Source: an uncultured delta proteobacterium
Lineage (GTDB): Bacteria; Desulfobacterota; Binatia; Binatales; Binataceae
Direction: 5' to 3'
Assembly (NCBI GenBank): GCA_963842085.1
Contig: CAWJET010000001.1
Coordinates: forward strand, 2,048,001-2,112,000
Length of the DNA: 64,000 nucleotides
A program made the position numbers and the translations under genes. The first letter of the stretch is position 1; every line of letters begins with the position of its first letter. Below are positions 27,264 through 46,608 of this stretch, in pieces. The notes beneath the pieces are model-generated. The model ran no database searches. It was not told where the DNA came from and worked only from the letters and a program-made list of their open reading frames with translations.

Positions 27264-27267
27264 CTTT

Positions 27268-28545
27268 GTGAAAATCACCATCGGCCTCTCGCTCTCTCTC
27301 ACCGGCGAATATTCTCCGATGGGCCGGCAAGCCGAAACCGCGATCCGTCTGTTCATCGCCGACGCGAACGCCAGCAGCGCGCTGCGCGTCGCCGGCGAGC
27401 GATGTGAATTCGCCCTCGAATGCCGCGACGACGCCAGCGATCCGGTGCGATGCGCCGAAATCTATCGCTCGCTATGCGCAGATCGCCGCGCCGGCATAAT
27501 CTTTGGCCCATACTCCAATCGCCTCGCGCGCGTCGCCGCGAACATCGCCGAACAATTCGGGCGCGTTTTCGTCAACCACGGTGGCGCCGGCGACGAACTT
27601 TACGATCGCGGCTACAAGATGATCGTAGGAGTACTCAGTCCCGCGAGTGACTACTTGCGCGGTTTCGTTCGCCTGCTGACCCAGCTCAAGCTATGGCGCA
27701 AGCGCGTCGCAATCGTCGCGTCGAAGACGCCGTTCGCACGCGCGGTTGCGTCGGGCTTCGAGCGCGCCGCCGACGAACGCGCCGCTCGCCGCCGCGGAGT
27801 CCGCCTGCGTGTGAAGTGGAACGGCGCGTTCGACCCCGACTCGACGCCCGCGCGCCTTTTCCCCGCGTTGGTGCGCAACCGCGTCAATGCGCTTGCCAGC
27901 GCCGGCAGCTATGAACACGATGTCGCCGTGATGCGCGCGGTCGCAGCTTCACGTCTCAACATTCCGGTGCTCGGATGCGTGGCAGCGGGCGTGCATCGCT
28001 TCGCGTCGGACCTGGGCGAACTGGCGGAAGGAATCGTCGGCCCTTCGCAATGGGAGGATTCCCTTGAGTTCGAGCCTGCGCTCGGCCCGACGCCCGCCGA
28101 GTTTGCGCGTCGAATGCGCACGGCAGGCGCCAACCAAACCGATTCTCCCGACTATCCTGCGGCGCAGATCTACGCTGCCGGCCTGCTCACCGCCGCCGCG
28201 CTGGCTGCGGCGGGTGGTCCGGACGACGCGATGCTTCGTGCTGCATTCTCCGACTTGCGCACCACCACGATGTTCGGCGACTTCTCGATCGATCGCGTCA
28301 GCGGACGCCAGCTCGGTCACCAGATGCTGCTCGTGCAATGGCACCGCGGGCGCAAGGTCATCATCGAGCCGCAATCGCACGACGATTCGGGCGCGCTCGA
28401 TCTTCCCTCTGGCCTGCGCCTGCTCCTTGCGGGAATCGAGATGCTTCGCTTAAGTCGTCCTGACGATTCGCGCGAATCGCTCGGCGACGACGACAGCGAA
28501 TCTGACGATCCGGACCTGGATGAAGATGAGCGCAATCACGATTAG
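27268..28545 (+). CDS. LivK-like branched-chain amino-acid-binding fold protein lacking an obvious signal peptide
   Basis: IGLSLSLTG, DDASDP, FGPYS, TMFGDF...QW; GTG start 4 bp after the maoC stop. Confidence 0.8.
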   Translation: MKITIGLSLSLTGEYSPMGRQAETAIRLFIADANASSALRVAGERCEFALECRDDASDPVRCAEIYRSLCADRRAGIIFGPYSNRLARVAANIAEQFGRVFVNHGGAGDELYDRGYKMIVGVLSPASDYLRGFVRLLTQLKLWRKRVAIVASKTPFARAVASGFERAADERAARRRGVRLRVKWNGAFDPDSTPARLFPALVRNRVNALASAGSYEHDVAVMRAVAASRLNIPVLGCVAAGVHRFASDLGELAEGIVGPSQWEDSLEFEPALGPTPAEFARRMRTAGANQTDSPDYPAAQIYAAGLLTAAALAAAGGPDDAMLRAAFSDLRTTTMFGDFSIDRVSGRQLGHQMLLVQWHRGRKVIIEPQSHDDSGALDLPSGLRLLLAGIEMLRLSRPDDSRESLGDDDSESDDPDLDEDERNHD

Positions 28546-29734
28546 ACTCGAAGGCCGCAAGGTTCTCGCCATCGGCCTGATGTCCGGGACTTCGCACGAC
28601 GGCGTGAGCGCGGCTCTCGTTGAGCTCGACGAGCGCGCCCGTCCGCCCGCGCGCGTGCTCGCGTTTCAAACTTTTCCGTACCGGGCGCGCTTTCGCAAAG
28701 AACTGCTCGCCGCCTCAGCCAACGAGAAAATCGGCGCGGCGGCGATTTCGACGCTCAACTTCGCACTGGGACGCGAGCTGGGACGCGCCGCCATCGAGAT
28801 CGCCCGGCGCGCTGGTGTCGCGCTTTCCGACGTCGCCTTCATCGGATCGCACGGCCATACATTTTTTCATCTGCCGCCGCGCCGCGTTGCCCGCGGACAG
28901 GTCGCCTCCACGATGCAACTCGGCGAGCCCGCCGTTGTCGCCGCAGCCACCGGCGTTCCCGTCGTTGCCGACTTCCGCGCGATGGACCTTGCGCTCGGTG
29001 GCGAGGGCGCGCCGCTCGCCCCGCTCGCCCAACTCTGGCTGTTCGCCGACTCCATGCACGGCCGCGTCGTGCAGAACATCGGCGGCATCGGCAACGCAAC
29101 TTACATTCCGCCCCGCGCGCGCCTGGGCGACGCCGACCTCATCGCATTCGATACCGGCCCGGGTAACATGATGCTCGACGCGCTCGCTTCACGAATCTCT
29201 GGCGGCCGCCTGCGGATGGATCGCGACGGACGCATCGCGGCGCGCGGGCAGGTCAACCAGCCGCTGCTGGCCAGGCTGATGCGCAATCCCTACTTCGGAC
29301 GACGCCCGCCAAAATCGACAGGCCGCGAGGAATTCGGGACCCATCTGCTCGATCGCATCGTCGCCGACGCCCGCCGCATGAAAATCGTTGACTACGATCT
29401 GGTCGCGACCGTTACCGCCCTCACCGCGCGATCGATCGCGGATGCATGCCGCCGCTTCATCCTTCCCCGCGGTCCCGTCGATCAGTTGATCGTCACCGGC
29501 GGCGGCGCAAAAAATTCCACCTTGATGCGCATGCTCGCGGCCGAACTTCCCGAGGTCGAAGTGATCACCGCCGCAGAACTCGGCGTTGACGGCGACGCGC
29601 TCGAGGCCGTCGCATTTGCCATCCTCGGCTACCAGATGCTGCGCGGCCGCCAGGGTAATATCCCCAGTGTCACCGGTGCGCGAGCGCCCGCCATCCTCGG
29701 CAAACTAACGCTGCCCCCGCGTCCACTAGCATGA
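28526..29734 (+). CDS. anmK: Anhydro-N-acetylmuramic acid kinase
   Basis: GLMSGTSHDG, GSHGHT, GGEGAPL, NIGGIGN, FDTGPGN, PKSTGRE. Confidence 0.95.
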   Translation: MSAITIRLEGRKVLAIGLMSGTSHDGVSAALVELDERARPPARVLAFQTFPYRARFRKELLAASANEKIGAAAISTLNFALGRELGRAAIEIARRAGVALSDVAFIGSHGHTFFHLPPRRVARGQVASTMQLGEPAVVAAATGVPVVADFRAMDLALGGEGAPLAPLAQLWLFADSMHGRVVQNIGGIGNATYIPPRARLGDADLIAFDTGPGNMMLDALASRISGGRLRMDRDGRIAARGQVNQPLLARLMRNPYFGRRPPKSTGREEFGTHLLDRIVADARRMKIVDYDLVATVTALTARSIADACRRFILPRGPVDQLIVTGGGAKNSTLMRMLAAELPEVEVITAAELGVDGDALEAVAFAILGYQMLRGRQGNIPSVTGARAPAILGKLTLPPRPLA

Positions 29735-29754
29735 TCGCGTTCGAGCGCAGCCTT

Positions 29755-29820
29755 TGTCATCCTGACCAAGCGAGCGCGAGCGGCAGGAAAGATCTCGGAC
29801 AGCTTCGCGCCAGCGAAGCC
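29755..29820. repeat. Degenerate REP-like palindromic element between convergent genes
   Basis: TGTCATCCTGA...AAGATCT signature and hairpin GCTTCGC-GCCA-GCGAAGC (29802-29819). Confidence 0.45.
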
Positions 29821-29855
29821 GGCTCCGGTTTTGAAATCGCGAAGCGGTCCTTGGA

Positions 29856-31139
29856 TCACGCGCTCCTTTTATCTTCCGGCGCCGGCACTCCCGCCTTCGC
29901 CGCCGACTCGAGTACTGCGGATCGAAAGATACCGTGCGCCATCGTCGATTCCTCGCGCTCGGCGCGCGCCGCATAGATTCTCATCCGCGCTTCATGCGCC
30001 GATTTGTCGTCCGGCGCCGCCGCCACTGCCCAGTCGGCCAGATGACACGCGAGCACGATTTCACCCGCCGCAAGTTTCTCATTCGCGCGCGCGATGATCG
30101 GCGCCACGCCGCCCGCCAGCGCCGCGATCTCCCGCGCGCGTTCGCCGTCGGTCGCGGGTTTCAGATTCGACGGCGTGCCGTCGTACCATCCGCCCTCCAG
30201 CCGCCAGATATTGCGGACGATAAACTGGGGCTCGTCGTACACGGCCTGCAGCCAGGGCTTCTCCGCAAGATTCGGCGGCGGTTTCACCGTGTGAATTATC
30301 TCGTCCAGGGATGAGCCCGCGTTCATCATCGCAACGGTCTGATCGTATAAACTTTGCAGGTAGTTCGCCGTGTCGTTCAGCACCTGGCGCACTCGAATCG
30401 CGCCGAACACCGGGTAGCCATGCCCCGGCACGAGCACTTCCGCCCCCAGCCGCGCCATCGCGCGCAGCGCCTCGGCCCATTCGCGCGCGTAGCGCTGCGC
30501 CTTCTGCGGATTGCCGGCATTGGGGGCGGCCCAGATGATCAAGTCTCCGGTGCACAGCACCTTGCGCTGCGGCATAAACACCCAGCAATGGTCGTCGGTC
30601 TCGCCGCGCGCATGATGGCATTCGAACTTGTCGTCGCCCGCAACTACATTCAACTGACTATCGAAGTAGGTATCCGGATATACATACTCAGTCGGCCACG
30701 CCGCGGGCCGGTTGAACTGCCGCGTATTGACTACTGTGTTATAGCCAGTCGTGCGCTTGTAGCGATCGAATCGCGCCGCGACCGCGCGATGCCCCACCAC
30801 ACGCGGCCGCGCGACCTTGTTCTTCTGCGCATCCGCGACGATCGCCGGCATCCCGCACGCGTGGTCGACGTGCCCGTGCGTGTAAATGGCGGTGTTCACC
30901 CGCTCCGGCGAGAACTGCCGAATCAGTTTCACCGTCGCATCCTGGTTGAAGTAGCCGCCCGTGTCGATCAACACCAGGCCCTCGCGCGTTTTGGCGGCCG
31001 TCACGTTCGCGAACCATCGGTAGAACATCACGCCGTCCGCAATTTCCTCGTACTCTCCGGTCGGCAGGAGCGGATGGCACTGGCGGGTCGTAATCGCGCC
31101 GGTGAAAATCTTTTCCGACTGGTCTCTGATAATGCCCAT
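29856..31139 (-). CDS. Alkyl sulfatase-like metallo-beta-lactamase
   Basis: THGHVDH, GETDDH, PNAGNP, PGHG, GWYDG dimerisation region. Confidence 0.9.
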   Translation of the reverse strand: MGIIRDQSEKIFTGAITTRQCHPLLPTGEYEEIADGVMFYRWFANVTAAKTREGLVLIDTGGYFNQDATVKLIRQFSPERVNTAIYTHGHVDHACGMPAIVADAQKNKVARPRVVGHRAVAARFDRYKRTTGYNTVVNTRQFNRPAAWPTEYVYPDTYFDSQLNVVAGDDKFECHHARGETDDHCWVFMPQRKVLCTGDLIIWAAPNAGNPQKAQRYAREWAEALRAMARLGAEVLVPGHGYPVFGAIRVRQVLNDTANYLQSLYDQTVAMMNAGSSLDEIIHTVKPPPNLAEKPWLQAVYDEPQFIVRNIWRLEGGWYDGTPSNLKPATDGERAREIAALAGGVAPIIARANEKLAAGEIVLACHLADWAVAAAPDDKSAHEARMRIYAARAEREESTMAHGIFRSAVLESAAKAGVPAPEDKRSA

Positions 31140-31160
31140 CGCTGAATCTTCCTCGGCGAC

Positions 31161-31859
31161 TCAATCGATTCGATGCAGCTCCCCGATGTGCCGAATCTTC
31201 TCATGCTCGACCCAGGTGTAGCGCTCGTGCTGATCGACGAGCCGTGCTTCGATGCCCGCCGCGCGCGCGCCCTCGACGTCGATCGAATAGATGTCTCCGG
31301 CAAATTTCACTTCGCCGGGAGCGGCGCCCAGGCGCTCGAGCGCGATTCGAAAAATCCGCGGGTCGGGCTTGGCGACGCCGACAATGTGCGAGTCGATTAT
31401 CACGTCGAAGTAATCCGCCAGCCTGAATCGTCTGGCATCCGCCTCGACCTGCCCCTCCGCATTGGACACGATCGCGAGCTTGTAGCCGGCGGACTTGAAT
31501 GCCTCCAGCGCCTCGAACGTGCCCGGCCGCACGACGCGCCAGAGCGTGGCCTCGCGATGTATCGCGCTGAACCTCGCCGCGCATTCGCGGAATTCCTCTT
31601 CTGGAATTCCCGCCGCCGCCATCCAGCCGCGAAAAAAATGCTCGTAAGCCGCACTGGTGGCTTGCCTGTTCCCCTCGCTCATCAGGTGTCGATCGATCGC
31701 CGCGCGCCCCGCGTATTCGGCATGTTCGAGCGCGAGCGCGTCGAGCTTGCGCCCTTCGCGCGAGAATTCGCGCGCGAGCAATTCGAAGTCCAGGAACGCC
31801 AGCGTGCCGCCAAAGTCGAAGAGCAGCGCCTTGAGGTTTTCCCTCTTCTTCGGGCTCAT
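31161..31859 (-). CDS. HAD-superfamily hydrolase
   Basis: FDFGGTL, VSN, KPDPRIF, GDIYSIDVEGA. Confidence 0.92.
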   Translation of the reverse strand: MSPKKRENLKALLFDFGGTLAFLDFELLAREFSREGRKLDALALEHAEYAGRAAIDRHLMSEGNRQATSAAYEHFFRGWMAAAGIPEEEFRECAARFSAIHREATLWRVVRPGTFEALEAFKSAGYKLAIVSNAEGQVEADARRFRLADYFDVIIDSHIVGVAKPDPRIFRIALERLGAAPGEVKFAGDIYSIDVEGARAAGIEARLVDQHERYTWVEHEKIRHIGELHRID

Positions 31860-31927
31860 TCCGCTAAAGCTTAGCAGGAACCGTCGCCACCGGCGCGGGC
31901 TATCACACGAGTAACGATGGATTGTGG

Positions 31928-32317
31928 TCAGCCGGTGTAGGTCGCGATGTACCAGATGTTGCCGAAGGAGTCCTTCACGCCGGCGGCGCGCTCCTGGTAG
32001 GGCTTGTCTTCGGGGGCGGTGATCGAGGTTGCGCCGGCCGCCAGCGCGCGCTGGTAGGCTGCGTCCACGTCGTCGACGTACACATAGATGGAAGCGGGCT
32101 TGCCGCCGGGATGAGGCGGGTCGCAGACCTCCATCACGACCATCGAATCGCCGATTTTGGCCTCGACGTGAAAGCCCCTGCCGACTCCGAGGCGCTGCAA
32201 TTCCACCGCACCGAAGGCCCGCTTTACCAGTTCCAACATGTCCAAACGGCCGTACAAGTAGGGTCGGACACTGCCGACGCCATGGCGGATGTGGCTTGTG
32301 GCACTACGCATGGGCAT
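31928..32317 (-). CDS. VOC/glyoxalase (PhnB-like) protein
   Basis: YVDDVDAAYQRALAAGA, VKDSFGNIW. Confidence 0.9.
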   Translation of the reverse strand: MPMRSATSHIRHGVGSVRPYLYGRLDMLELVKRAFGAVELQRLGVGRGFHVEAKIGDSMVVMEVCDPPHPGGKPASIYVYVDDVDAAYQRALAAGATSITAPEDKPYQERAAGVKDSFGNIWYIATYTG

Positions 32318-32492
32318 TCTCCGGGCGGACATTATACCGGTATTGGCTGTATCGGTATTAACCAGGCAACGTCCTAATGGTTACGGTATCGCTACTGAGG
32401 GGCTTGGTTTATCCGTGTGCGGTTCGTATTCTAACAGGTCGGTTGCCAAGGCTCGCAGCTTGAATCTACAATCAGTCCGGGGAGATTGACGA

Positions 32493-33797
32493 ATGGCCGA
32501 TCCGCTTAGCTTCGAGGCGCTGGCGAGCAGCGAACATGTGCTGTCCAGCGCGGAAAACTTCGTTCTCTACGTGTTGCTCGAGGCTGTTGCCCGGGGCGCG
32601 GGCGGCGCGGGCGGCGGCAGCCGGGTGCCGCTCAACTTGGGTGTGGTGATAGATCGGTCGGGCTCGATGTACGACGAACGGCGGCTGGAATTCGTCGTCG
32701 ACGCAGTCAAATTCCTGGCCGACAACCTGACCGAGGACGACAAGGTCTCGATAGTCGCGTTTGCCGACAAGGCGAAAGTGATAATCACGCCCGAGGCCGC
32801 GCGTGACAAGGCCGCGATCAAACGCGCGATCGACGATATCGACCTGCTCGAAATCGGCGGCGGCACGCAGATGGCGCTCGGGATGCGTGCGGCAATCGAC
32901 GAGGTCAAGAAAAATCTCAGCCCCGATCGCCTCAATCGCGTGCTGGTGCTCACCGACGGCCAGACCTACGAAGAGACGGCTTGTATCGACCTGGTCGAGA
33001 AGAACCGCGGCGAGATTTCGTTCTCGACGATGGGCGTCGGCGTCGAGTTCAACGAGAAACTGCTGCAACGCCTGGCGCAGGACTCCAACGGCAAATATCA
33101 TTTCATCGGCGACCCGGCCGAGATTCCCAGCATTTTCGAAGACGAGCTCGAGGGACTGCGCTCGGTGAGCCTGCGCAACGGGCGAATCGAGGTGACCCTG
33201 TCGCAGGGCGTGCAGGTGCGCGAAGCGTTTCGAGCTTCGCCGGAAATTTACGTGCTCGGCACGCCGTTGGTCGGCGAGGACCGCAAAATCGGCTACGAGA
33301 TTGGCGACCTGCAGGCGGGCGTGCCCGGCTCCGTGCTGTTGACGCTGGTGCTGCCGCCGCGCAAGCCGGGGCAGGTCAGAATTCTGCAAAGCACGTTCCA
33401 TTACGAGGTGCCGGGCGGCGGCGAAAAGACCGTGGAATGCGATCTGACCGTCGATTACACGCTCGATCGGACGCTGACCAGCAAGCGCAACGGCCGCGTC
33501 ATGAACCTGGTGGACCAGGTCTCGATCGCCAAGCTGCAGGCCAAGGCGGAAGAGGAACTCAAGGCGGGCAACGTCGACCGGGCGACGCGCCTGCTCGGCA
33601 ACGCGCTGCAAGGCACGCAGCGGATGGGCAATGTCAAGGCGACGCAGGCGCTGTCGGGTCTGATCGATCAGATCAAGAAGACGCAGACTCTGCAGACCAA
33701 GGCGGCCAAGACCACGCTGCTGCAAGCGCAGGCAGTGGTGCGCAAGACCCAGATGCTCGATCCGGAAGCGTTGAAGGAATTTCAGAAGTCCGACTAG
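32493..33797 (+). CDS. von Willebrand factor A domain protein with helical C-terminus
   Basis: MIDAS residues DRSGS...GGT...LTDG. Confidence 0.92.
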   Translation: MADPLSFEALASSEHVLSSAENFVLYVLLEAVARGAGGAGGGSRVPLNLGVVIDRSGSMYDERRLEFVVDAVKFLADNLTEDDKVSIVAFADKAKVIITPEAARDKAAIKRAIDDIDLLEIGGGTQMALGMRAAIDEVKKNLSPDRLNRVLVLTDGQTYEETACIDLVEKNRGEISFSTMGVGVEFNEKLLQRLAQDSNGKYHFIGDPAEIPSIFEDELEGLRSVSLRNGRIEVTLSQGVQVREAFRASPEIYVLGTPLVGEDRKIGYEIGDLQAGVPGSVLLTLVLPPRKPGQVRILQSTFHYEVPGGGEKTVECDLTVDYTLDRTLTSKRNGRVMNLVDQVSIAKLQAKAEEELKAGNVDRATRLLGNALQGTQRMGNVKATQALSGLIDQIKKTQTLQTKAAKTTLLQAQAVVRKTQMLDPEALKEFQKSD

Positions 33798-33886
33798 TGT
33801 TATCGCGTGAAACGTGAAAGATGGAAATGAAATTTGGTGAACGGCACGGTACCGATACTTCGAACTCACCGGCGAGGGCTTAGACC

Positions 33887-34531
33887 ATGATCAAATGCGG
33901 CGAATGCGGCTACGAAAACATGGACGGACTTGATTACTGCGACGGATGCGGCGCGAAGCTCGCCGCCGCCGGCACCGCCGCTGGCGCTCCCGCTGCCGCG
34001 GCTCCCGAAGCCGCGGCTCCCGAAGCAGCGCCAGCCGCTCCCGCTGCTGAAAGCACCGACGCTAACGCGGCGCCTGCGGACGGGGCGGCGGCTCCGACGG
34101 CAGAAGCGCCCAAGTCGGAAGCGCCGACCGGTGAGATCAAGCCGGAGGCCGCGCCCGAAAGTGCGCCCGCAACGGCGGCCGCTGCGGCGCCGTTCAAGGC
34201 GAAGCTGGCGGTGGTTCGCGGCGGACGCAAGGGCCAGGAATTCCCGCTCGAAGACGGCAACAATCTGATCGGCAGATGGGATCCCGAGACGGGATCGTTT
34301 CCGGAGGTGGATCTCGACGCCGACGATCCCGAGGCGAAGATCTCGCGCAAGCACGCGCTGATTCGAATCGAAGGAGGCAAGATCACGATCGAGGACATCG
34401 GCAGTCTCAACGGCACCTACGTGAATCGTCAGCCGCGGCTCTCGCCGGGCAGTCCCGCCGAGATCAAGTCGGGTGACGAAGTGATCATCGGAAAAACGTT
34501 TTTGAAGCTGGTGGTAGAACCGATCTCTTGA
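33887..34531 (+). CDS. Zn-ribbon + Ala/Pro/Glu linker + FHA domain protein
   Basis: CGECG...CDGCG; IGR, SRKH, SLNGT. Confidence 0.92.
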   Translation: MIKCGECGYENMDGLDYCDGCGAKLAAAGTAAGAPAAAAPEAAAPEAAPAAPAAESTDANAAPADGAAAPTAEAPKSEAPTGEIKPEAAPESAPATAAAAAPFKAKLAVVRGGRKGQEFPLEDGNNLIGRWDPETGSFPEVDLDADDPEAKISRKHALIRIEGGKITIEDIGSLNGTYVNRQPRLSPGSPAEIKSGDEVIIGKTFLKLVVEPIS

Positions 34532-34606
34532 GCCGCCATCCCCTCCAGTCGCGCCCGGAAGTACGCCGCGTGCGTGGAAGCTGATGGGGGGTTATAGACA
34601 ATCGCC

Positions 34607-36343
34607 ATGAATGCGGGTGAGGAGCTCCCCGAGGGCCATCTTCTCGACGGTCGTTACCGCGTCAAGAAGGTGCTCGGCGTTGGCGGGATGGGACGCGTGT
34701 ACCTGTCCAACGACACGCGCCTGGCGAACCGGCCGGTGGCGGTCAAAGAGATGGTCGTCGGCGACGGAATCCAGGAGAAAAAGGCGGTCGAGGATTTCGC
34801 GCGCGAGGCCAACGTGCTCGCGCGCCTGTCGCATCCGGGGATCCCCACTCTGATCGATCACTTCGCCGAGAACGCGCGCCATTACCTGGTGATGGAGTTT
34901 GTCGCGGGCGGCGATTTGCAGCACCTGCTCGACAAGCTGGGGCCCAAGGGCAAAGTCGCCGAGGACCGAGTTCTCAGGTGGGCGCGGCAGATGCTCGACG
35001 TGCTCGATTTCCTGCACGGGCAAAAGCCGCCGATAATTTATCGCGACCTGAAGCCCGGCAATATCATGATCGACAAGGACGGCCGCGCGATGCTGATCGA
35101 TTTCGGCATCGCGCGCTTCCTGCCGCCGGGCGGACGCGGCACGCAAATCGGTTCGGTCGGCTACGCGCCACCCGAGCAGTACATGGGCAAGGTCGAGACG
35201 CGCTCGGACCTTTACTCGCTGGCCGCCACCATGCATCACCTGCTGACCGGGCGCGATCCGCAGCTCGAGCCGCCGTTCAGCTTTCCTCCCCTGCGCGCGC
35301 TCGCGCCCGAGGTTTCGGTCAAGACGGCCGACGCCGTAATGCGCGCGCTCGAGCAGGACGTGACCAAGCGGCCGGCGTCGGCAAAAGAGATGAAGCGCGC
35401 ACTGCCCGAGCCGCCGCCCGAGAACAAGTCGGGGCAACTGAGTGGGAGCGCGGGACTCGCGATCGGCGCCGGCGCGGGCGCGCCGAGTCCGATGTCCACG
35501 CAGTCGACAGTGGTGCTGAGCAATTCGAATGCGCCGGCGGCGGCGCCACGGTCGCGGCCGATGACCCCGTGGAAGTCGGCGGTATCGAGTGCGCCGGCGT
35601 CCACGATGCCAACGATCGTGCTGAGCGAGCCGGCCGCGGCAAAAATCAAGAGCGGCGGTGGAACGGGCGGCAGCACGGCGGCCAAGCTCGTCGCGCCGCA
35701 AATCAAAAGGGCGATCGAGCTCGGCGGCAAAGCGCGCAGCATGATTGAGCGTCGGCTCAAGGCGCGCATGTCCGCATCGGCGCACAGCGCGGCTCCGAAT
35801 CCGTCATCGACGGCCAAGACGAAAGAGTTGAAGCCGGCGGTAGCGGCGTCGTCGTACGGATCGCGACTCGGCTCGACCGGCGACTCGGCGCAGGCCGACA
35901 CCAAAGCCCGGACGGGTTCGCGCGCATCTTCGTCGCGCAGCTATTCGCCGCGGATTTCGACGGGTCCAGGTGCCGGCGGATTGTTTGCAAACAACAACAA
36001 CGGCGCCGTCGACGTATCCGCCGCGCCGGCCAAGCTGGTCTCGCGCGGCGATGAAATCGAGTTCGGCATTTTTGGGATGCGCACCGTGATCGGACGCTCG
36101 CAGGATAAGGCCGACAAGCTCGATATCGATTTGAAGAAGCTCGCGCAGGGCGGCGATCGCGTCTCGCGGCGCCATGCGGAGATAGTGCTGCGCGGCACCG
36201 ACTACTTCATCCGCGATCTGGGCAGCCTGAACGGCACGTATATCGCCGGGCGCGGCAAGCTCGGGCGCGACCAACTGTATAAGTTGAAAGACCGCGACCA
36301 GGTGGTGTTCGGTGGTGCTATATTGCAGTTTCGGAGAGGCTAG
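34607..36343 (+). CDS. Cytoplasmic Hanks-type Ser/Thr kinase with C-terminal FHA domain
   Basis: GVGGMG, AVKE, YRDLKPGN, DFG, APPE; FHA motifs IGR/SRRH/SLNGT; no TM segment. Confidence 0.95.
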   Translation: MNAGEELPEGHLLDGRYRVKKVLGVGGMGRVYLSNDTRLANRPVAVKEMVVGDGIQEKKAVEDFAREANVLARLSHPGIPTLIDHFAENARHYLVMEFVAGGDLQHLLDKLGPKGKVAEDRVLRWARQMLDVLDFLHGQKPPIIYRDLKPGNIMIDKDGRAMLIDFGIARFLPPGGRGTQIGSVGYAPPEQYMGKVETRSDLYSLAATMHHLLTGRDPQLEPPFSFPPLRALAPEVSVKTADAVMRALEQDVTKRPASAKEMKRALPEPPPENKSGQLSGSAGLAIGAGAGAPSPMSTQSTVVLSNSNAPAAAPRSRPMTPWKSAVSSAPASTMPTIVLSEPAAAKIKSGGGTGGSTAAKLVAPQIKRAIELGGKARSMIERRLKARMSASAHSAAPNPSSTAKTKELKPAVAASSYGSRLGSTGDSAQADTKARTGSRASSSRSYSPRISTGPGAGGLFANNNNGAVDVSAAPAKLVSRGDEIEFGIFGMRTVIGRSQDKADKLDIDLKKLAQGGDRVSRRHAEIVLRGTDYFIRDLGSLNGTYIAGRGKLGRDQLYKLKDRDQVVFGGAILQFRRG

Positions 36344-36349
36344 CGGCGC

Positions 36350-38407
36350 ATGATCACCTGTCCTGAATGCGGCCAAGAGGCGCCGGACGACGCCACGTTT
36401 TGCGATCGATGCGGTCAGGGACTGTCCAAGGCAGCCTCATCCGCGGCGCAGTCGTCGCCGACGCGGCCGACGCCTCTGACAGCCTGCACGTCACTCAGAG
36501 GCGGAATCGAGATAGTCGCGCTGACGGGCCAGACGTCGATTGAAAATCGCTATCGGGCAAAACGGGTCCGCGACGGCAAGACGGAATCGATCGCATTGCG
36601 CGAGCGCTTCGGCCCGCAACCGGCGGCAGAAGCTGTCGATGAAGCGCCGGTGGTCGAGACGCCTGCGCCGCAGGCGGTGCGTAACGAAGATCCCAACGGT
36701 CCGAGCGCCAAGACGGCGGAACTCAGACCGCAGGCTGCGCAAACCAATGGGACCGCATCCGCGGCGCCGCCGCAGCACGCGTCGAGTGCGCCCGTGGCAG
36801 CGCCGGCCGGCACCGACGCGTCGGCGGAAGGCATACAGTCGGCGGTCGCGACCGAAGCGAGCGCTGGCGTTTTGGCCGAGGCCGCGGAGAATGCATCGCC
36901 GGATGAAGCGAGCGAAGCGGCGGAAGCGGCGGTCGTAGCCGAAACTCAGCAAAATTCGGCGAGCGGCGACGGCGCGCTCGAGGATGAATCGCCCGTGGGC
37001 GGCGAAGATCTCGGTGAGGTCTTCGGGCGTGTGCTGGCGCTGTCACAAACGATCAGCCATCCGGCGTTTCAGCGCGCGATCGAAGGATTCGCTTCGGTTG
37101 AAAACGGCCGCGTGTACCTGATTTACGCCGACGAGGTACTAAAGCCGCTGCGTCGCGGTTCTCAGAAAATGAGCGAGCCGGAAGCGATCGCGGCCGCGGT
37201 GCAGCTCTGCCAGGCGATTTCGTTTGTGCATCGCCGGGCGCTCAGGCTCAACGACATCTGCCCGGAATCGGTTTCGCTTGCCAAGGACGGCCGGCTCAAG
37301 CTGACGGGCCTGGACTACGTCAGCAACGACAACGAACTTCAGAGCGAGCCGATTTTCAACGACGGCTACACGGCGCCCGAGATTTATCGCGGCAAAAAAG
37401 TGGACAAGCGCGCTGACATTTTCTCGGCCGGCGCGCTCCTCTACACGTGGCTCACGGGCGCGAGGATTCCCAGCGAGAGCTGGCGCGAAGAGGCCGGACC
37501 GGTCCAGTTCTATCCGCCGCATGTCGTCACACCGCGGCTGGAGAATGCGATTCGCCGTGCGATCGCCTTCAGTCCCGCCGATCGCTGGCCGACGGTCGAC
37601 GAGTTCAAGGCCGAGCTGATCGCGCTCGGAAGCACGATTCGCCTGCGCGCGGCCGCGATGACCGACGTTGGCCGTGTGCGCGAGCATAACGAGGACTCGG
37701 TGCTGGCGGTCGAGTACGTACGCGAATCGCTGGTCGAGCCGGCGCAGACGCATTTGTATGTCGTGGCCGACGGAATGGGCGGCGCGGAGGCCGGCGAAGT
37801 CGCTTCCGCAATTGCCGTTGAGACGATCCGGAGTTACATTGAGACCCGGCTCGATACCGCACGTGGAGAAGTTAAAAACGGAGCGGAGCTGCTGACGGGC
37901 GCGCTCGAAGAAGCGAATTCCAGGATTATCGACTATGTGGCGAGCCATCCGGAGTCGCGCGGAATGGGTTCGACGGGCGTTTGCGCGCTGGTCACGCCTT
38001 CAAACGCGGCCGTGGCCTGGGTCGGCGACAGCCGGGGATACGTGATGGAAGGCGCGACGCTTCGCCAGGTCACGAAGGATCATTCTCTCGTGCAGCGGCT
38101 GGTCGAAATAGGCCAGATAACCGCTGAGGAAGCGCACACGCACGAGCACAAGAACGTGATCACGCGCTCGCTCGGCGCGCGCCAGAGCGGACCAGCCGGG
38201 GCGGAGGCGGTCGCGCTCAAGCTGAAACGCGGGGACAAGCTGATGCTGTGCAGCGACGGCTTGACGGCGCACGTCATGGACAATCAGATCCGCGACATCC
38301 TGGGGCGCAACGCGGATCCCTTCGACGCGGCGCGCGAATTAATCGTCGCAGCCAACGCCGGTGGCGGTACCGACAACATTTCAGTGATTGTAGTCTATGC
38401 AAGCTAG
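36350..38407 (+). CDS. Zn-ribbon + degenerate kinase domain + PP2C phosphatase fusion
   Basis: CPECG...CDRCG; kinase C-lobe YTAPE/DIFSAG with a degenerate catalytic loop; PP2C motifs NED, VADGMGG, VGDSR, CSDGL, GTDNI. Confidence 0.92.
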   Translation: MITCPECGQEAPDDATFCDRCGQGLSKAASSAAQSSPTRPTPLTACTSLRGGIEIVALTGQTSIENRYRAKRVRDGKTESIALRERFGPQPAAEAVDEAPVVETPAPQAVRNEDPNGPSAKTAELRPQAAQTNGTASAAPPQHASSAPVAAPAGTDASAEGIQSAVATEASAGVLAEAAENASPDEASEAAEAAVVAETQQNSASGDGALEDESPVGGEDLGEVFGRVLALSQTISHPAFQRAIEGFASVENGRVYLIYADEVLKPLRRGSQKMSEPEAIAAAVQLCQAISFVHRRALRLNDICPESVSLAKDGRLKLTGLDYVSNDNELQSEPIFNDGYTAPEIYRGKKVDKRADIFSAGALLYTWLTGARIPSESWREEAGPVQFYPPHVVTPRLENAIRRAIAFSPADRWPTVDEFKAELIALGSTIRLRAAAMTDVGRVREHNEDSVLAVEYVRESLVEPAQTHLYVVADGMGGAEAGEVASAIAVETIRSYIETRLDTARGEVKNGAELLTGALEEANSRIIDYVASHPESRGMGSTGVCALVTPSNAAVAWVGDSRGYVMEGATLRQVTKDHSLVQRLVEIGQITAEEAHTHEHKNVITRSLGARQSGPAGAEAVALKLKRGDKLMLCSDGLTAHVMDNQIRDILGRNADPFDAARELIVAANAGGGTDNISVIVVYAS

Positions 38408-38434: not shown

Positions 38435-40813
38435 ATGGCCACCTCGCCCAAAGATACATCGCAGCAGACCGGGCCGCTCGCGGCCGGCACCGTGCTGCAG
38501 GGCCGCTACGCGATCGCGCGGCTGCTCGGCGGCGGCGGGATGGGGATGGTCTACCTCGCGCATGACCAGCGCCTGGCCAATCGCCCGTGCGCGATCAAGG
38601 AGATGGTCGATCACTTTATCGACCAGGCGCAGCGGATCGAGGCCAACGAGTATTTCGCGCGCGAAGCCGACACGCTCGCGCAACTGAAGCATCAGGCGAT
38701 TCCCGCGATCACCGACCGCTTCGAACTCGCCAATCGCCATTACCTGGTGATGGAGTACGTCGAGGGGCGCAACCTCGAGGAGGAACTCGCCGCGCGCGGC
38801 GAGCCGCTGCCCGAGGGCCTGGTGATCGACATCGCGCGCCAGCTGTGCGACGTGCTCGCGTATCTGCACGGGCTCACGCCGCCGATAATTTATCGCGACA
38901 TGAAGCCGTCCAACGTGATGGTCAATTCGAACGGGCGGGTGGTGCTGGTGGACTTTGGGATCGCGCGGCTGTTCAAGGCGGCGCGCAAGGGCACGATGAT
39001 CGGCACGCTCGGCTTCGCGCCGCCGGAGCAGTACCAGGGCCTGGTCGATCCGCGCAGCGACATCTACTCGCTGGGTGCGACGCTGCATTACGTGCTGACG
39101 GGCCGCGACCCCGAAAAGTTCCCGCCCTTCAGTTTTCCGCCGGTGCGCGACCTGCGTCCGGGCGCGTCGAGCAACCTGGCGGGCGCTATCGACGCTGCCC
39201 TGGCATACGAGGTGGACGGGCGGCCGGGGACCATCCAGGAATTTCGCGACATGATGCTCTACGGGCGCGGCCTCACGCTCGACGGCGCTCGCGTCAGCTC
39301 GACCAGCGGAACCGGCGGCCTGTCGCAGTACCAGGAACAACTCGAGTTTGAGGACGAGCCGGTCGTTCCTCGCAAGCCGCGCAGCGCGCTGGGCCGTTCG
39401 ATCGGTCTGGCGATCTTCCTGATGGTGTTGGCGGGGGCCGCGTTCGGCGGGACCTACCTTTATTCAGATCCGGCACTGCAGCTGCGGCTCGGGCTCAAGC
39501 CGCTGTTCGACGGACTGCCGTGGAAGCATGAGGAGTTGCTGGCCAAGGCGCGCGAGAATCCGCTCGAATTTTCCCAGATGACGCTGGCGCTTTCGACGCG
39601 CGAGGGCACCGCCCTGGCGCCGCCGCAATCGCAATTCAAGGACACCGATCTGACCAACGCGCGCTACCTGAAGTGGACCGCGACCTTCAAAAACCTGCTC
39701 GCCGGACTGGAAGGGCGCGATGAAAAAGTCGAGGCGCGCTTTTACGATCCGAACGGACTTCAGATAGCGTCCAGCGACACGAATATGTTTATCGGGCCGG
39801 CGCAGAAAACCGCCGACTTCAGCGGCGTGGCGTTGATGCCGACCATGACCGACAAGCCCGCCGGCACCTACAAAGTGGCGCTCTACTCGAACGACAAGAT
39901 GCTCGCGCAGGAAGGCTTCCAGGTTAACCAGGACGTTAGCGCGAGGAACGCAGCGGCGGCGTCCGCGGCGGCGGCTGCGGCGGCCGCGAAGGAAGAGGAG
40001 CGCAAGCGCGAAGAGGAAGCGCGCAAGCTCGCAATGATCGACGAGCGCCGCGCCAAGCCGCTGCAGCTCCGCAGTATCACCTTTCTCAACACTACCAAGA
40101 CCGGAACCGCACTGTCTGGCGCGACCGACTCTTTCGACGTATCGAAGGTGCTGTTCGTCGGCTGGGAAGTCAGCTTCGAGAACCGGCTTTACAAGCTGGA
40201 GCCCGGCCAATACCGCGTCGATGCGGCGTATATCGGGCCGGACGGCCGCACGCTGGGCAGCGTCAACGATTATCAGCCCGTCTCGCCCAGCATGAAAACG
40301 GTGACGTTTAGCGGACGCGTCGGCAACTCGCGCGGCGGCGCGTTTTTGCCGGGGACGTACACGGTTAATTTTTATCTGAACGGCCAATATTTCGACGCGA
40401 AGAGATTTGAGGTGGTGGCCGACGCGGGTGGCAGTCCGTCCGCGACGTACCCGGGCGGCGGCGGCGCAATCGGCAGCTCGATGGGCGGCAGCAGTTCGGG
40501 CTCCAGCATGCTGGGGCCGACGATCGCCACCGGCACCATCAGCGGTCTTCGCAGCGGCGGTAATCCCGAGATGGAGCTTAGGCTGCGTCCGCAGCCCAAC
40601 GGCTTCCTGCACGGCGAGCTCGTCATCCGTCAGTCAGGCTTCGGGATGACGCCGATCGAAGGATTCGTGCGCGGCAACCACCTGCAATTCCAGGTCCCAT
40701 ACGGCACCGAGACGTACTACTTCGAAGGCGCGCGCAGGAACGATCAGATCAGCGGCACTTTCGAATCGACGCCGTCGGGAGAGCGCGGCACCTGGGTCAC
40801 AACGGCGAACTAA
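38435..40813 (+). CDS. Membrane-anchored Ser/Thr kinase with large extracytoplasmic region
   Basis: GGGGMG, AIKE, YRDMKPSN, DFG; TM segment IGLAIFLMVLAGAAFGGTYL; two similar beta-rich domains follow. Confidence 0.95.
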   Translation: MATSPKDTSQQTGPLAAGTVLQGRYAIARLLGGGGMGMVYLAHDQRLANRPCAIKEMVDHFIDQAQRIEANEYFAREADTLAQLKHQAIPAITDRFELANRHYLVMEYVEGRNLEEELAARGEPLPEGLVIDIARQLCDVLAYLHGLTPPIIYRDMKPSNVMVNSNGRVVLVDFGIARLFKAARKGTMIGTLGFAPPEQYQGLVDPRSDIYSLGATLHYVLTGRDPEKFPPFSFPPVRDLRPGASSNLAGAIDAALAYEVDGRPGTIQEFRDMMLYGRGLTLDGARVSSTSGTGGLSQYQEQLEFEDEPVVPRKPRSALGRSIGLAIFLMVLAGAAFGGTYLYSDPALQLRLGLKPLFDGLPWKHEELLAKARENPLEFSQMTLALSTREGTALAPPQSQFKDTDLTNARYLKWTATFKNLLAGLEGRDEKVEARFYDPNGLQIASSDTNMFIGPAQKTADFSGVALMPTMTDKPAGTYKVALYSNDKMLAQEGFQVNQDVSARNAAAASAAAAAAAAKEEERKREEEARKLAMIDERRAKPLQLRSITFLNTTKTGTALSGATDSFDVSKVLFVGWEVSFENRLYKLEPGQYRVDAAYIGPDGRTLGSVNDYQPVSPSMKTVTFSGRVGNSRGGAFLPGTYTVNFYLNGQYFDAKRFEVVADAGGSPSATYPGGGGAIGSSMGGSSSGSSMLGPTIATGTISGLRSGGNPEMELRLRPQPNGFLHGELVIRQSGFGMTPIEGFVRGNHLQFQVPYGTETYYFEGARRNDQISGTFESTPSGERGTWVTTAN

Positions 40814-41305: not shown

Positions 41306-42175
41306 ATGGCGAGTAACGTTTCCCAGGAGAAGCTTCTGTTCTACGCGGCCGCCGGCGCGCTTGGCGGCTTCGCCGCGTGGGGGCTCTCGGAGCCAATCCT
41401 CGGCATCCGCTGGGTCTATGGCCGCGATATCTTGTTCGGCGCGCTGATCGGCGCACTGATCAGCGCGTTTCTCGCCTCGATCGAGACACTCAGCGTAGGC
41501 CAGATTCGCCAGGCAGCGCGCCGATTCATCGTCGGCGGGGTTATCGGCGCGGCCGGCGGAGCGTTGGGGCTACTCGTCGGCGAATTTGCGTTCGACATCC
41601 TGGGCGGGCTCAACGGCCGCATCCTGGGATGGGGCGTGCTTGGAATCGCGGTCGGACTCGGCGTGGGTTCGGCGTCGGGATCGGCGGCGCGGCGGCGCAA
41701 TGGCGCGATCGGCGGCGTGCTGGGCGGAGCGCTCGGCGGATTTTTCTACCAGAGCCTGACGACCACCTTTCCGCAAGCGTTCGGACGTGCGATCGCGATC
41801 ATCATCCTGGGCGCGCTGATCGGATTCTTCATCGGACTGGTCGGCGAGCTGCTCAAGCGCGGCTGGCTGATGGTCGTGCGCAGCCAGAGCCGCAACGCGC
41901 GCGAGGGCCGCGAGTATCCGCTGCTCAAGGGCGTGACTATCATCGGCCGCGCCGAGGAAAGCGACATCGGGCTGTTCGGCGATAAGTCCGTGCTCGGTAG
42001 TCATGCGATCATCCGGCGCGAGGGCAAGAATTTCATCATCAGTCCGACCGGCGGCCAGATATTCGTGAATCGACAGCCGGTAGCGGGCCGCTATGCGCTC
42101 AAGAGCGGCGATCGGCTCGAGGTGGGCGGCACGCTGTTTCTCTTCCGCGAGCGGGCCCAGGCGGCGAATCGATAA
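41306..42175 (+). CDS. Gly-rich multi-TM protein with degenerate C-terminal FHA domain
   Basis: About six GxxxG-rich helices; IIGR...HA...LKSGDRLEVG. Confidence 0.85.
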   Translation: MASNVSQEKLLFYAAAGALGGFAAWGLSEPILGIRWVYGRDILFGALIGALISAFLASIETLSVGQIRQAARRFIVGGVIGAAGGALGLLVGEFAFDILGGLNGRILGWGVLGIAVGLGVGSASGSAARRRNGAIGGVLGGALGGFFYQSLTTTFPQAFGRAIAIIILGALIGFFIGLVGELLKRGWLMVVRSQSRNAREGREYPLLKGVTIIGRAEESDIGLFGDKSVLGSHAIIRREGKNFIISPTGGQIFVNRQPVAGRYALKSGDRLEVGGTLFLFRERAQAANR

Positions 42176-42190
42176 GAGGCGCGGCAGATC

Positions 42191-42958
42191 GTGGGGAGCC
42201 TGCACACCTGCCGAATCGCGCTCCTCATCACGATCGCTTCGATTCTAACTTCGATGCTCGCGGGATGTTCGAGCGTCAATGAAGGCGGCGGCACGGCTGC
42301 GGCACCTACGACGTCGGTTCAGACGCTCGAGTATTACCCGTACCAGGTCAAGGGATACCAAAACAGTTATCCCAAAAAGACCATCCTGATTCTGATGCCG
42401 GCCGACGCGCGTGATGTGACCCGCGACGCCGCGCCGCTCAACGGCAATCCGGCGATCGGAGTTATCGTCGATCAATCGGGCAACGTCACTGAACGCCTGT
42501 ACAGCTCATCGCTTGGCCCGATCCTGCAGCAAGCGATCGGGCGCTCGGCGGACGAGGCGGGGTTGAGCGCGTCGTCGTCTACCGAGGTCACCTATAAGCC
42601 TGGCGTCACGGAGAAAACCGAGTATGTACTCGAGAGCAAGATTCGGCGCTGCTGGGTGAAGAAGGCCCGCGGCGCTGACGGTCAGTACGGTCCCATCTGG
42701 CGGACGATCGCGGACTTTGCGCTCGACGTCTCGATCTACAAGCCGCCGTTCAGCGTTCCGTTCTGGACCGGCAGCACCAACGATACCTACTACGACCCGC
42801 CGGTCGGCTCGTTCGGTCTCGGTTCAGAGGACGAAGCGGGCATTTACGACGAACCGGGGCAGGATTTGTCGGTCGCGCTGACGCGCACGGTGGCCGCGAT
42901 CTTCCAGCGCCAGGACTTGCGCAATCTGGTGCTTGAAGACGACATCAAATCCCGCTAA
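42191..42958 (+). CDS. Predicted lipoprotein
   Basis: Signal peptide with LAGC lipobox. Confidence 0.8.
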   Translation: MGSLHTCRIALLITIASILTSMLAGCSSVNEGGGTAAAPTTSVQTLEYYPYQVKGYQNSYPKKTILILMPADARDVTRDAAPLNGNPAIGVIVDQSGNVTERLYSSSLGPILQQAIGRSADEAGLSASSSTEVTYKPGVTEKTEYVLESKIRRCWVKKARGADGQYGPIWRTIADFALDVSIYKPPFSVPFWTGSTNDTYYDPPVGSFGLGSEDEAGIYDEPGQDLSVALTRTVAAIFQRQDLRNLVLEDDIKSR

Positions 42959-43119
42959 GCGCTTGGTTCCGGGGCGCGGTCTTTGAACAATCGATATGTT
43001 GGAATAGCCTAGGCAGAGCGCCGGATAATCAAATGCCGGAGCGTGCGCGGGAGTTTCCCTCCTGCCGCATGGCTGCGAATCCGGACCGCATCGTCGTCTG
43101 CCAAGAGGAAGCACGTTTG

Positions 43120-44025: not shown

Positions 44026-44048
44026 AGGGCGAGAGGGTTAAGTTGTTT

Positions 44049-45587: not shown

Positions 45588-45594
45588 GGAGGGA

Positions 45595-46596: not shown

Positions 46597-46608
46597 AAAC
46601 GGTTCGCA

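Follow-up and report, generated by a model that had tools for sequence, protein, structure and literature searches.

Conserved T-x-x-[L/I/M] sites in the proteins of a Binataceae vWA-FHA-PP2C-kinase operon: a candidate docking code around an ArnB/ArnA-type pair

In a 64,000-nucleotide stretch of DNA from an uncultured delta proteobacterium of the family Binataceae (GenBank assembly GCA_963842085.1, contig CAWJET010000001.1, forward-strand positions 2,048,001 to 2,112,000; hereafter the window, to which all coordinates refer), we found that the products of five co-directional genes share at least 12 T-x-x-[L/I/M] sites. The genes, all on the plus strand, encode an ArnB-like vWA protein of 434 amino acids with a split beta-sandwich, a vWA domain with a complete MIDAS (metal-ion-dependent adhesion site) and a C-terminal helical domain (32493..33797); an ArnA-like protein of 214 amino acids that consists of a zinc ribbon, an Ala/Pro linker and an FHA domain (ZnR-FHA; 33887..34531); a Ser/Thr kinase of 578 amino acids in which an active-type Hanks kinase domain is joined to an FHA domain by a disordered linker of ~200 residues (STK-FHA; 34607..36343); a fusion of a zinc ribbon, a kinase-like domain with an insert of ~130 residues and a PP2C phosphatase (685 amino acids; 36350..38407); and a receptor-type Ser/Thr kinase of 792 amino acids in which a single transmembrane (TM) segment is joined by a large extracytoplasmic part (38435..40813). 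On balance, we favour the reading that this operon supports a multivalent, phosphorylation-dependent assembly on a shared T-x-x-[L/I/M] code, built around the ArnB/ArnA-type pair. From sequence and from analogy with known systems, we infer that the threonines are phosphorylated and bound by FHA domains, which domain takes which site, and what follows from it.

The original prediction had proposed a phosphothreonine (pThr) docking motif, T-x-x-[LI]-x-P, in four consecutive proteins, and translation confirmed all four copies: TQMLDP at 33747-33764 (T419 of the vWA protein), TGEIKP at 34127-34144 (T81 of ZnR-FHA), TKELKP at 35819-35836 (T405 of STK-FHA) and TAELRP at 36713-36730 (T122 of the PP2C fusion). 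Short peptides in low-complexity sequence may resemble one another by chance, and it speaks for this explanation that the motif was defined post hoc and that shuffling alone yields its loose form 0.69 times on average across the four proteins (compared with 5 observed). Upon shuffling the residues of the four motif-bearing proteins 20000 times, however, a fraction of only 0.00055 of the shuffles had at least one T-x-x-[LI]-x-P in each protein, and 0/20000 reached three or more copies of T-x-E-[LI]-[KR]-P. Together with the near-invariance of the sites in 61-67 orthologues, as compared to the variable linkers around them, this refutes chance resemblance, to which we give next to no credence. 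The fifth loose match, TLVLPP at 33342, was discarded as irrelevant, as it lies inside the folded beta-sandwich of the vWA protein.

Conservation was quantified in the best 80 of 140 related loci that came out of scanning genomes with aligned PP2C-fusion sequences (55-92% identity to the PP2C-fusion query over the best segment). Each per-protein alignment comprised the window copy and 60-66 orthologous open reading frames (ORFs) that reached within 15 residues of both ends, with truncated contigs and frameshifted ORFs excluded. Six loci from long-read metagenome-assembled genomes (L013, L016, L022, L023, L058 and L075) had operon genes broken into partial ORFs, most likely through assembly frameshifts; in L013, the linker of ZnR-FHA is read out of frame.

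The threonine was kept in 61/61 sequences at T419, 64/65 at T81, 65/67 at T405 and 66/66 at T122, and the Leu or Ile at +3 in 61/61, 63/65, 66/67 and 66/66, respectively, with Ser, Val or Ala almost never found in place of the Thr. The linker islands that hold these sites were 0.78-0.89 identical to the window protein, compared to 0.31-0.46 for the remaining linker, which bears out the expectation of the original prediction that the motifs would form conserved islands within variable linkers. All four Thr codons were in use at each site (three at the receptor-kinase site T293), along with three to six Leu/Ile codons, and this synonymous variety at the Thr and at +3 indicates that selection acts on the protein. 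The Pro at +5, part of the motif as first defined, was variable (60/61 at T419, 55/65 at T81, 33/67 at T405 and 39/66 at T122) and was dropped as a motif element. Hence, the core of the motif is T-x-x-[L/I/M], with an optional Pro at +5 and a variable [KR] at +4. The conserved Thr carry the hydrophobic residue at +3 that can be read by FHA domains.

The number of sites also grew beyond the four motifs in four proteins. Calling a linker or tail Thr conserved if it was kept in at least 70% of orthologues, we obtained 17 sites, 12 of which have L/I/M at +3: T365, T375, T384, T397, T407 and T419 of the vWA protein, T81 of ZnR-FHA, T301, T336 and T405 of STK-FHA, T122 of the PP2C fusion and T293 of the receptor kinase. 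Among the unconserved Thr of the same regions, this was the case for 1/23 (Fisher test versus the conserved Thr, 1.2e-5). Leaving out the vWA protein, 6/8 conserved Thr still had L/I/M at +3, at an L/I/M frequency of 0.069 (binomial, 2.7e-6). The receptor kinase had first been linked to the motif through a TGPL at its N-terminus; this candidate was rejected, with the Thr present in only 41/66 sequences and the invariant P-L marking the start of the kinase domain. Its conserved site is a juxtamembrane G-T293-x-x-L (39311..39322), in which both the Thr and the +3 Leu are kept in 66/66.

Half of the 12 sites belong to the vWA protein, which matched Pfam VWA (E 5e-19) and, in a phmmer search against the PDB, ArnB (8s05_A; E 2.9e-11, residues 51-402), with further matches to the ArnB paralogue 5a8j and to 4fx5 from Catenulispora. 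Its AlphaFold2 (AF2) model, with a predicted local distance difference test score (pLDDT) of 92.3, places strands at 5-33 and 225-323 and the vWA domain at 47-223, and Foldseek returned 4fx5, 8s05_A and 5a8j at target TM-scores (TMt) of 0.80, 0.77 and 0.71, at a sequence identity to ArnB of only about 20%. The modelled architecture is that of ArnB, with the vWA domain splitting the beta-sandwich and a C-terminal helical bundle after it. The MIDAS residues D54, S56, S58, T125, T154 and D155 were kept in 61/61 orthologues. A weak match to the Pfam family vWA-TerF-like was also seen (32.2 bits versus a cut-off of 29.4).

The C-terminal helical domain of the vWA protein (residues 331-434; 33483..33794, plus strand) carries the six conserved T-x-x-[L/M] sites, which start at 33585 (T365), 33615 (T375), 33642 (T384), 33681 (T397), 33711 (T407) and 33747 (T419). 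All six Thr were kept in 61/61 sequences, with Leu at +3 in 61/61 at five of them and L/M/I at T375; altogether, residues 365-419 hold nine conserved Thr, six of them in T-x-x-[LM]. A family profile aligned this repeat region with the ArnB region from which phosphopeptides have been reported. Upon scanning the last 105 residues against Pfam at E up to 1, we found no ArnB_C-type family, the only hits being sub-threshold ones to TPR_20 and CENP-R, and the evidence for homology here is therefore the fold together with the PDB profile alignment. The AF2 model predicts helices at 334-357, 361-378, 381-397, 403-417 and 424-433, and places T419 (K-T-Q-M-L-D) in a low-confidence loop at 418-423 (pLDDT about 63). 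The original prediction had located all motifs in tails or low-complexity linkers; this holds for the linker sites, whereas the vWA "tail" is, according to the model, a folded ArnB_C-like domain with T419 in its one exposed loop.

The adjacent ZnR-FHA protein resembles ArnA, with PDB matches to 8s05_C and 5a8i (E 2e-8 to 4e-8) that span residues 3-188 and include the zinc ribbon. It has the same architecture, in which a flexible linker connects an N-terminal zinc ribbon to a C-terminal FHA domain, and the pThr pocket of the latter is intact. The FHA domain was recognised by Pfam (E 5e-15) and came closest to GarA/OdhI (E 7e-14); zinc-ribbon models remained below the cut-off, and the ribbon cysteines C4, C7, C18 and C21 are invariant. 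The pocket residues G129, R130, S153, R154, H156, N175, G176 and T177 were kept in 65/65 sequences. Judged by sequence and predicted fold, the vWA and ZnR-FHA proteins are bacterial homologues of ArnB and ArnA. The linker island S-E-A-P-T81-G-E-I-K-P (34115..34144, plus strand) is flanked by indel-rich Ala/Pro stretches, shows an identity of 0.89 compared to 0.46 for the remaining linker, and places T81 ~25 residues ahead of the FHA domain in the same protein. A complex prediction for ZnR-FHA residues 100-214 with vWA residues 331-434 gave ipSAE values of 0.00 and 0.00, in a run that had no controls and in which phosphate cannot be modelled.

For the archaeal pair, experiments have shown that a kinase drives assembly through FHA-pThr contacts and that a phosphatase drives dissociation (PMC7472852, PMC12852372). 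ArnC, a Hanks kinase, phosphorylates numerous Thr within the C-terminal helical domain of ArnB, in a sequential manner (PMC12852372, PMC6509490, PMC7472852). The FHA domain of ArnA binds the phosphorylated ArnB region, as judged from pull-downs and HDX-MS (mass spectrometry after hydrogen-deuterium exchange), in an arrangement that is predicted and not solved (PMC12852372), and its zinc finger tethers the unphosphorylated pair via the beta-sandwich and helical domain of ArnB (PMC12852372, PMC6509490, PMC7472852). Phosphorylation leads to (ArnA/B)2 and larger complexes, which come apart when PP2A removes the phosphate from ArnB (PMC12852372, PMC7472852). In its essentials, this corresponds to the mechanism put forward in the original prediction. 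The ArnB phosphopeptides include E-T-T-R-R-I, twice, and T-R-R-M (PMC6509490), sequences that fit the pattern T-[RK]-x-[LIM].

Two candidate writers are encoded in the operon. STK-FHA matched Pfam Pkinase (E 5e-40) and FHA (E 2e-14), and its catalytic residues K47, E48, D147, K149, N152 and DFG were kept in 67/67 sequences; in the receptor kinase (Pkinase, E 4e-36), the catalytic residues were kept in 66/66, such that all eight positions of the VAIK Lys, the alpha-C Glu, D-x-K-x-x-N and DFG are intact in both kinases. The second canonical FHA domain, at the C-terminus of STK-FHA, likewise has a well-conserved pThr pocket (G496 and R497 in 67/67, S520 in 66/67, R521 in 63/67, H523 in 67/67, N542 in 66/67, G543 and T544 in 67/67). 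Three sites lie in the STK-FHA linker, all on the plus strand: T301-V-V-L (35507..35518; Thr in 66/67 and +3 Leu in 66/67), T336-I-V-L (35612..35623; Thr in 62/67, with Ser in 3, and +3 Leu in 65/67) and the island S-S-T-A-K-T405-x-[E/D]-L (35804..35836), which holds TKELKP and has Ala at -2 in 66/67 and Lys at -1 in 64/67. Residues 365-385 of the same linker form a further moderately conserved basic segment, K-R-A-I-E-L-G-G-K-A-R-S-M-I-E-R-R-L, that contains no Thr.

A basic residue at -1 recurs among the sites, with K/R in 60-61/61 sequences at T397, T407 and T419 of the vWA protein, in 66/67 at T405 and in 66/66 at T122. FHA rules are not known to require this residue, and a large hydrophobic residue at +3 has been reported as the preference of mycobacterial Hanks kinases. 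The islands might thus be phosphosites that reflect kinase preference alone (hydrophobic +3, basic -1) and regulate each protein individually, with no FHA docking, a scenario that the conservation statistics fit equally well. We nonetheless regard it as unlikely, given that two canonical FHA domains with conserved pocket residues are encoded in the same operon and that, for the homologous ArnA and ArnB, FHA binding of the phosphorylated region is backed by pull-downs and HDX (PMC12852372). Moreover, a preference of kinase and FHA domain for the same +3 residue is compatible with docking.

The putative eraser is the PP2C fusion, in which Pfam recognised PP2C, Zn_Ribbon_1 and Pkinase (residues 233-375, profile positions 53-198). 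Its phosphatase domain scored 241.2 bits with NCBIfam NF033484 (Stp1/IreP; cut-off 230), and the metal-binding residues D474, D560, D636 and D675 were kept in 66/66 sequences. In the kinase-like domain, L-N-D-I-C-P-E-S replaces H-R-D-L-K-P-x-N and D-Y-V replaces D-F-G, with C304 at the position of the catalytic-loop Lys and S307 at that of the Asn in 66/66 each, and R84 stands where the VAIK Lys is expected (alignment by eye). Because the catalytic-loop Lys, the Asn and DFG are missing, this domain is probably a pseudokinase, and the invariance of L-N-D-I-C-P-E-S makes a conserved non-catalytic role likely. The domain seems to be split within the gene (36350-38407; residues 47-88 and 219-430), with N-lobe-like strands at 53-87 that are separated by the Ala/Pro/Glu-rich insert of ~130 amino acids from the helix that opens the Pfam kinase match. 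The insert harbours the island E-D-P-N-G-P-x-A-K-T122-A-E-L-[K/R]-(P) (36686..36730, plus strand), at an identity of 0.85 compared to 0.31 for the rest of the insert. In alignment A1 of the PP2C fusion (21 sequences, 70-88% identity), D114, N116, G117, P118, A120, K121, T122, A123, E124 and L125 of the island are invariant. An AF2 model built from this shallow alignment had a mean pLDDT of 43.7, too low for any use beyond noting that residues 88-220 have no predicted secondary structure.

Three of the islands, T-G-E-I, T-x-[E/D]-L and T-A-E-L, share an acidic residue at +2, which was kept in 64/65 sequences at T81, 65/67 at T405 and 65/66 at T122. These islands might be ligands of the vWA MIDAS, with the Glu or Asp completing the coordination of the metal in the manner of integrin I-domain ligands and the Thr at most modulating the contact; the MIDAS is complete in all 61 vWA sequences, and a Glu-MIDAS contact was raised as a possibility by the authors of the ArnB work (PMC6509490). 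This appears improbable to us, as 7/12 sites (among the vWA sites, T301 and T336) lack an acidic +2 residue and T293 has one only partially (D/E in 21/66). In addition, conservation of the Thr and of the +3 residue is stricter than the sharing of E/D among sites, and a MIDAS ligand needs no invariant Thr.

In the assembly that we favour, the two Hanks kinases, STK-FHA in the cytoplasm and the receptor kinase in the membrane, would phosphorylate the common T-x-x-[L/I/M] sites, placing six marks on the C-terminal helical domain of the vWA protein, and the other four proteins would each receive at least one in a disordered linker. Both canonical FHA domains would read the pThr together with its hydrophobic +3 residue, giving rise to a multivalent assembly, while T81 of ZnR-FHA may alternatively engage its own FHA domain in a GarA/OdhI-like self-binding. 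PP2C would erase the marks and dissociate the complex, and it could itself be recruited by the same code, because the PP2C fusion carries its own site in the pseudokinase insert. Selectivity of FHA domains at pT+3, including for pTXXI, is documented (PMC5549992, PMC4037201, PMC3953482), as is the specificity of FHA pockets for pThr (PMC3953482).

Several observations weigh against such an assembly. Five of the six vWA sites lie within confidently predicted helices of a model with an overall pLDDT above 90, where, going by this model, a Thr with a hydrophobic residue at i+3 could serve in helix capping or core packing; docking there would need the order-to-disorder step that has been proposed for ArnB. 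In ArnB itself, the fastest sites, T353, T363 and T375, are not all T-x-x-I threonines, the site assignment in E-T-T-R-R is ambiguous between the adjacent Thr, and single or paired T-to-A mutants showed no motility phenotype (PMC6509490, PMC12852372). The conserved acidic +2 residue of the three islands plays no role in the FHA rule that we applied and may indicate another reader. The linker islands AKT-x-E-L and PTGEI were followed within Binataceae only, and in two cyanobacterial ZnR-FHA proteins the sole linker T-x-x-L (T-A-R-L) resembles, by eye, the first strand of the FHA domain. Finally, a third FHA domain, at the C-terminus of a multi-TM protein encoded downstream (TM-FHA; 41306..42175, plus strand; Pfam FHA E 2e-9, residues 211-274), retains the G-R but departs, by eye, from the usual spacing of S-x-x-H and N-G, and may, to judge from these residues, be without pThr binding.

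The helical position of the five vWA sites speaks for an explanation in which the T-x-x-L elements are structural or bind a partner unrelated to phosphorylation, acting as helix caps or core residues in the vWA protein and as amphipathic or strand segments that pack on folded domains in the linkers; the T-V-V-L and T-I-V-L of STK-FHA are indeed beta-prone. We deem this explanation improbable as well, since a Thr with a hydrophobic +3 residue recurs in five different proteins that have nothing in common but their place in a kinase/FHA/phosphatase operon. The rarity of Ser, Val and Ala in place of the Thr is, furthermore, what is expected of FHA ligands.

Beyond Binataceae, we followed the repeats of the vWA protein. 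An exhaustive HMMER search with this protein retrieved 233 representatives at E <= 1e-30, and 114 of 150 listed representatives (those of 380-520 amino acids, mostly 26-42% identical and a few higher) were analysed. Within the last 100 residues of these proteins, 444/905 Thr (0.49) had L/I/M at +3, as compared to 0.17 each in shuffles and in the rest of the 114 proteins, and 89/114 had at least three T-x-x-[L/I/M] sites there. The repeat consensus was [A/G/K]-T-[R/K/Q]-x-L, which suggests that the C-terminal T-[RKQ]-x-L repeats are a conserved functional element. Among plasmid sequences, tblastn identified 22 records with vWA homologues. We opened three of these, from Gloeothece (L081, 6893-14978), Nostoc (L083, 6884-12786) and Deinococcus sp. 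QL22 (L082, 6752-12538). All three operons have adjacent genes for vWA, (zinc-ribbon) FHA, long PP2C and kinase proteins, with 3-5 T-x-x-[LIM] sites in the vWA tails. The N-terminal parts of their PP2C proteins contain T-P-E-L (Gloeothece), T-P-E-L and T-G-E-L (Deinococcus) and T-E-T-V (Nostoc). These sequences give a hint, and no more than a lead given n=3 and a reading made post hoc, that the phosphatase carried a T-x-E-L site before Binataceae arose.

A bolder version of the proposal, which we consider rather unlikely to hold in full, combines two claims: that one write/read/erase T-x-x-[L/I] code serves a seven-gene, membrane-proximal signalosome, and that the vWA T-[RK]-x-[LIM] repeats are an ancient phospho-switch element, with ArnAB as one branch of a pan-prokaryotic module. 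In this signalosome, the receptor kinase would sense an outside signal, both kinases would mark at least 12 sites in five proteins, and two, perhaps three, FHA domains would cross-link them into a multivalent, switch-like assembly or condensate, which PP2C, recruited by its own mark, would collapse. The T-[RK]-x-[LIM] repeats would then be common to the vWA-FHA-PP2C-kinase operons of several phyla and to archaeal ArnB.

The genomic setting is conserved along with the sites. The same five-gene order was found in every Binataceae locus long enough to judge. Two more genes bring the total to seven: the gene for TM-FHA follows on the same strand, at most 1.5 kb downstream, in 59/66 loci with enough sequence, and a gene for a lipoprotein-like protein with a signal-peptide-like start and a Cys (42191..42958, plus strand) lies on the same strand at most 3 kb downstream in 60/66 loci. 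TM-FHA is probably part of the signalling system; no Pfam family matched the lipoprotein-like protein. In the receptor kinase, a TM segment at about 317-345 and the outside part were read from the sequence, and no Pfam family exceeded the cut-off in the extracytoplasmic part. This part appears to contain two similar beta-rich segments (residues ~370-500 and 540-660) with an Ala/Glu/Lys-rich stretch between them and, after the second, a linker rich in Gly and Ser that leads to a third domain. Among the Pfam-scanned neighbours at 27073-32377 and 41306-47595, we found no Ter, restriction, defence or T6SS (type VI secretion system) genes; the scanned neighbour genes are metabolic. One of them is the ORF listed as glucose-6-phosphate dehydrogenase at 43308-45587 (plus strand), whose GTG start is probably over-called, because its Pfam domains begin only at residue 276; genes for fructose-1,6-bisphosphatase (FBPase) and glucokinase lie downstream of it.

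Clusters of FHA, kinase and PP2C genes are common in bacteria, but for want of known docking sites little is understood of how most of them are wired. The Binataceae operon provides an unusually explicit wiring hypothesis at the sequence level by naming a small set of invariant Thr, spread over five proteins, that all have an FHA-readable residue at +3. FHA/pThr docking, ArnAB and vWA-FHA-PP2C-kinase operons are already known; what is new is the explicit multi-protein list of sites, the fused architecture and the link of the bacterial vWA tail repeats to the phospho-region of ArnB. We found no description of a motif shared across a vWA-FHA-PP2C-kinase operon in the literature within our coverage, which excludes subscription papers and supplements, and that literature held no papers on Binatota with FHA and none on FraH with a zinc ribbon and FHA.

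Among known systems, GarA/OdhI resembles ZnR-FHA in the FHA domain alone: the protein scored 60.3 bits with the NCBIfam OdhI model NF041660, for which the cut-off is 200, and, unlike GarA/OdhI, it has an N-terminal zinc ribbon. GarA does have a conserved Thr upstream of its FHA domain, and the FHA domain of GarA/OdhI binds the protein's own phosphorylated N-terminal Thr. In the ABC transporter Rv1747, two FHA domains occur together with a disordered linker that bears pThr sites. In the T6SS threonine phosphorylation pathway (PpkA, PppA, Fha, TssL), the Fha scaffold binds the pThr of a partner, which leads to assembly (PMC3953482); the present operon likewise encodes a PP2C and FHA domains next to a receptor-type Hanks kinase, but its vWA domain belongs to a separate cytoplasmic ArnB-like protein and not to the kinase.

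The TerY-P triad, for which a phosphorylation-dependent switch was proposed, consists of a TerY-like vWA protein, a PP2C and a Ser/Thr kinase fused to a C-terminal zinc ribbon (PMC11090510). A vWA protein, a PP2C and a Hanks kinase are likewise encoded together in the Binataceae operon, but its zinc ribbons are N-terminal on the FHA and PP2C proteins and not at the C-terminus of either kinase, and FHA domains are central to it, which places it outside the triad. MoxR-vWA ternary conflict systems (PMC7159879) were rejected as a match, as their defining MoxR AAA+ partner is not among the seven operon proteins.

The DRA0331-DRA0334 operon of Deinococcus radiodurans is described as a push-pull FHA/PP2C module in which the FHA protein boosts phosphorylation by the kinase and the PP2C counteracts it (bioRxiv 10.64898/2026.01.23.701218). 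Both operons combine vWA, STK, FHA and PP2C, and a docking module precedes the PP2C domain in Deinococcus; the gene order differs, and the region before PP2C is a KI-FHA there and a Pfam kinase domain here. The available part of that report describes no motif shared across the DRA0331-DRA0334 proteins. The plasmid operon of Deinococcus sp. QL22, which we found with the vWA query from the window, is of the DRA0331-DRA0334 type, and the tail of its vWA protein has T-x-x-[LIM] repeats.

The operon also resembles ArnA/ArnB of Sulfolobus acidocaldarius, where, as here, a vWA protein with a Thr-rich helical domain adjoins a protein of zinc ribbon, linker and FHA domain. In the archaeal switch, marks are written by a Hanks kinase (ArnC, ArnD), read by the FHA domain of ArnA and erased by a phosphatase (PP2A), and phosphorylation tightens the complex and makes it oligomerise (PMC12852372, PMC6509490, PMC7472852); the Binataceae operon likewise encodes Hanks kinases, FHA domains and a phosphatase. 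Unlike the archaeal system, it resides in a bacterium, which has no archaellum to regulate, it encodes the kinases and the phosphatase, a PP2C and not a PP2A/PPP, in the same operon, and it has candidate sites in every component and not in the vWA protein alone. Overall, the homology ties a widespread type of bacterial vWA-FHA-PP2C-kinase operon to ArnA/ArnB, the sole such system with structures and biochemistry.

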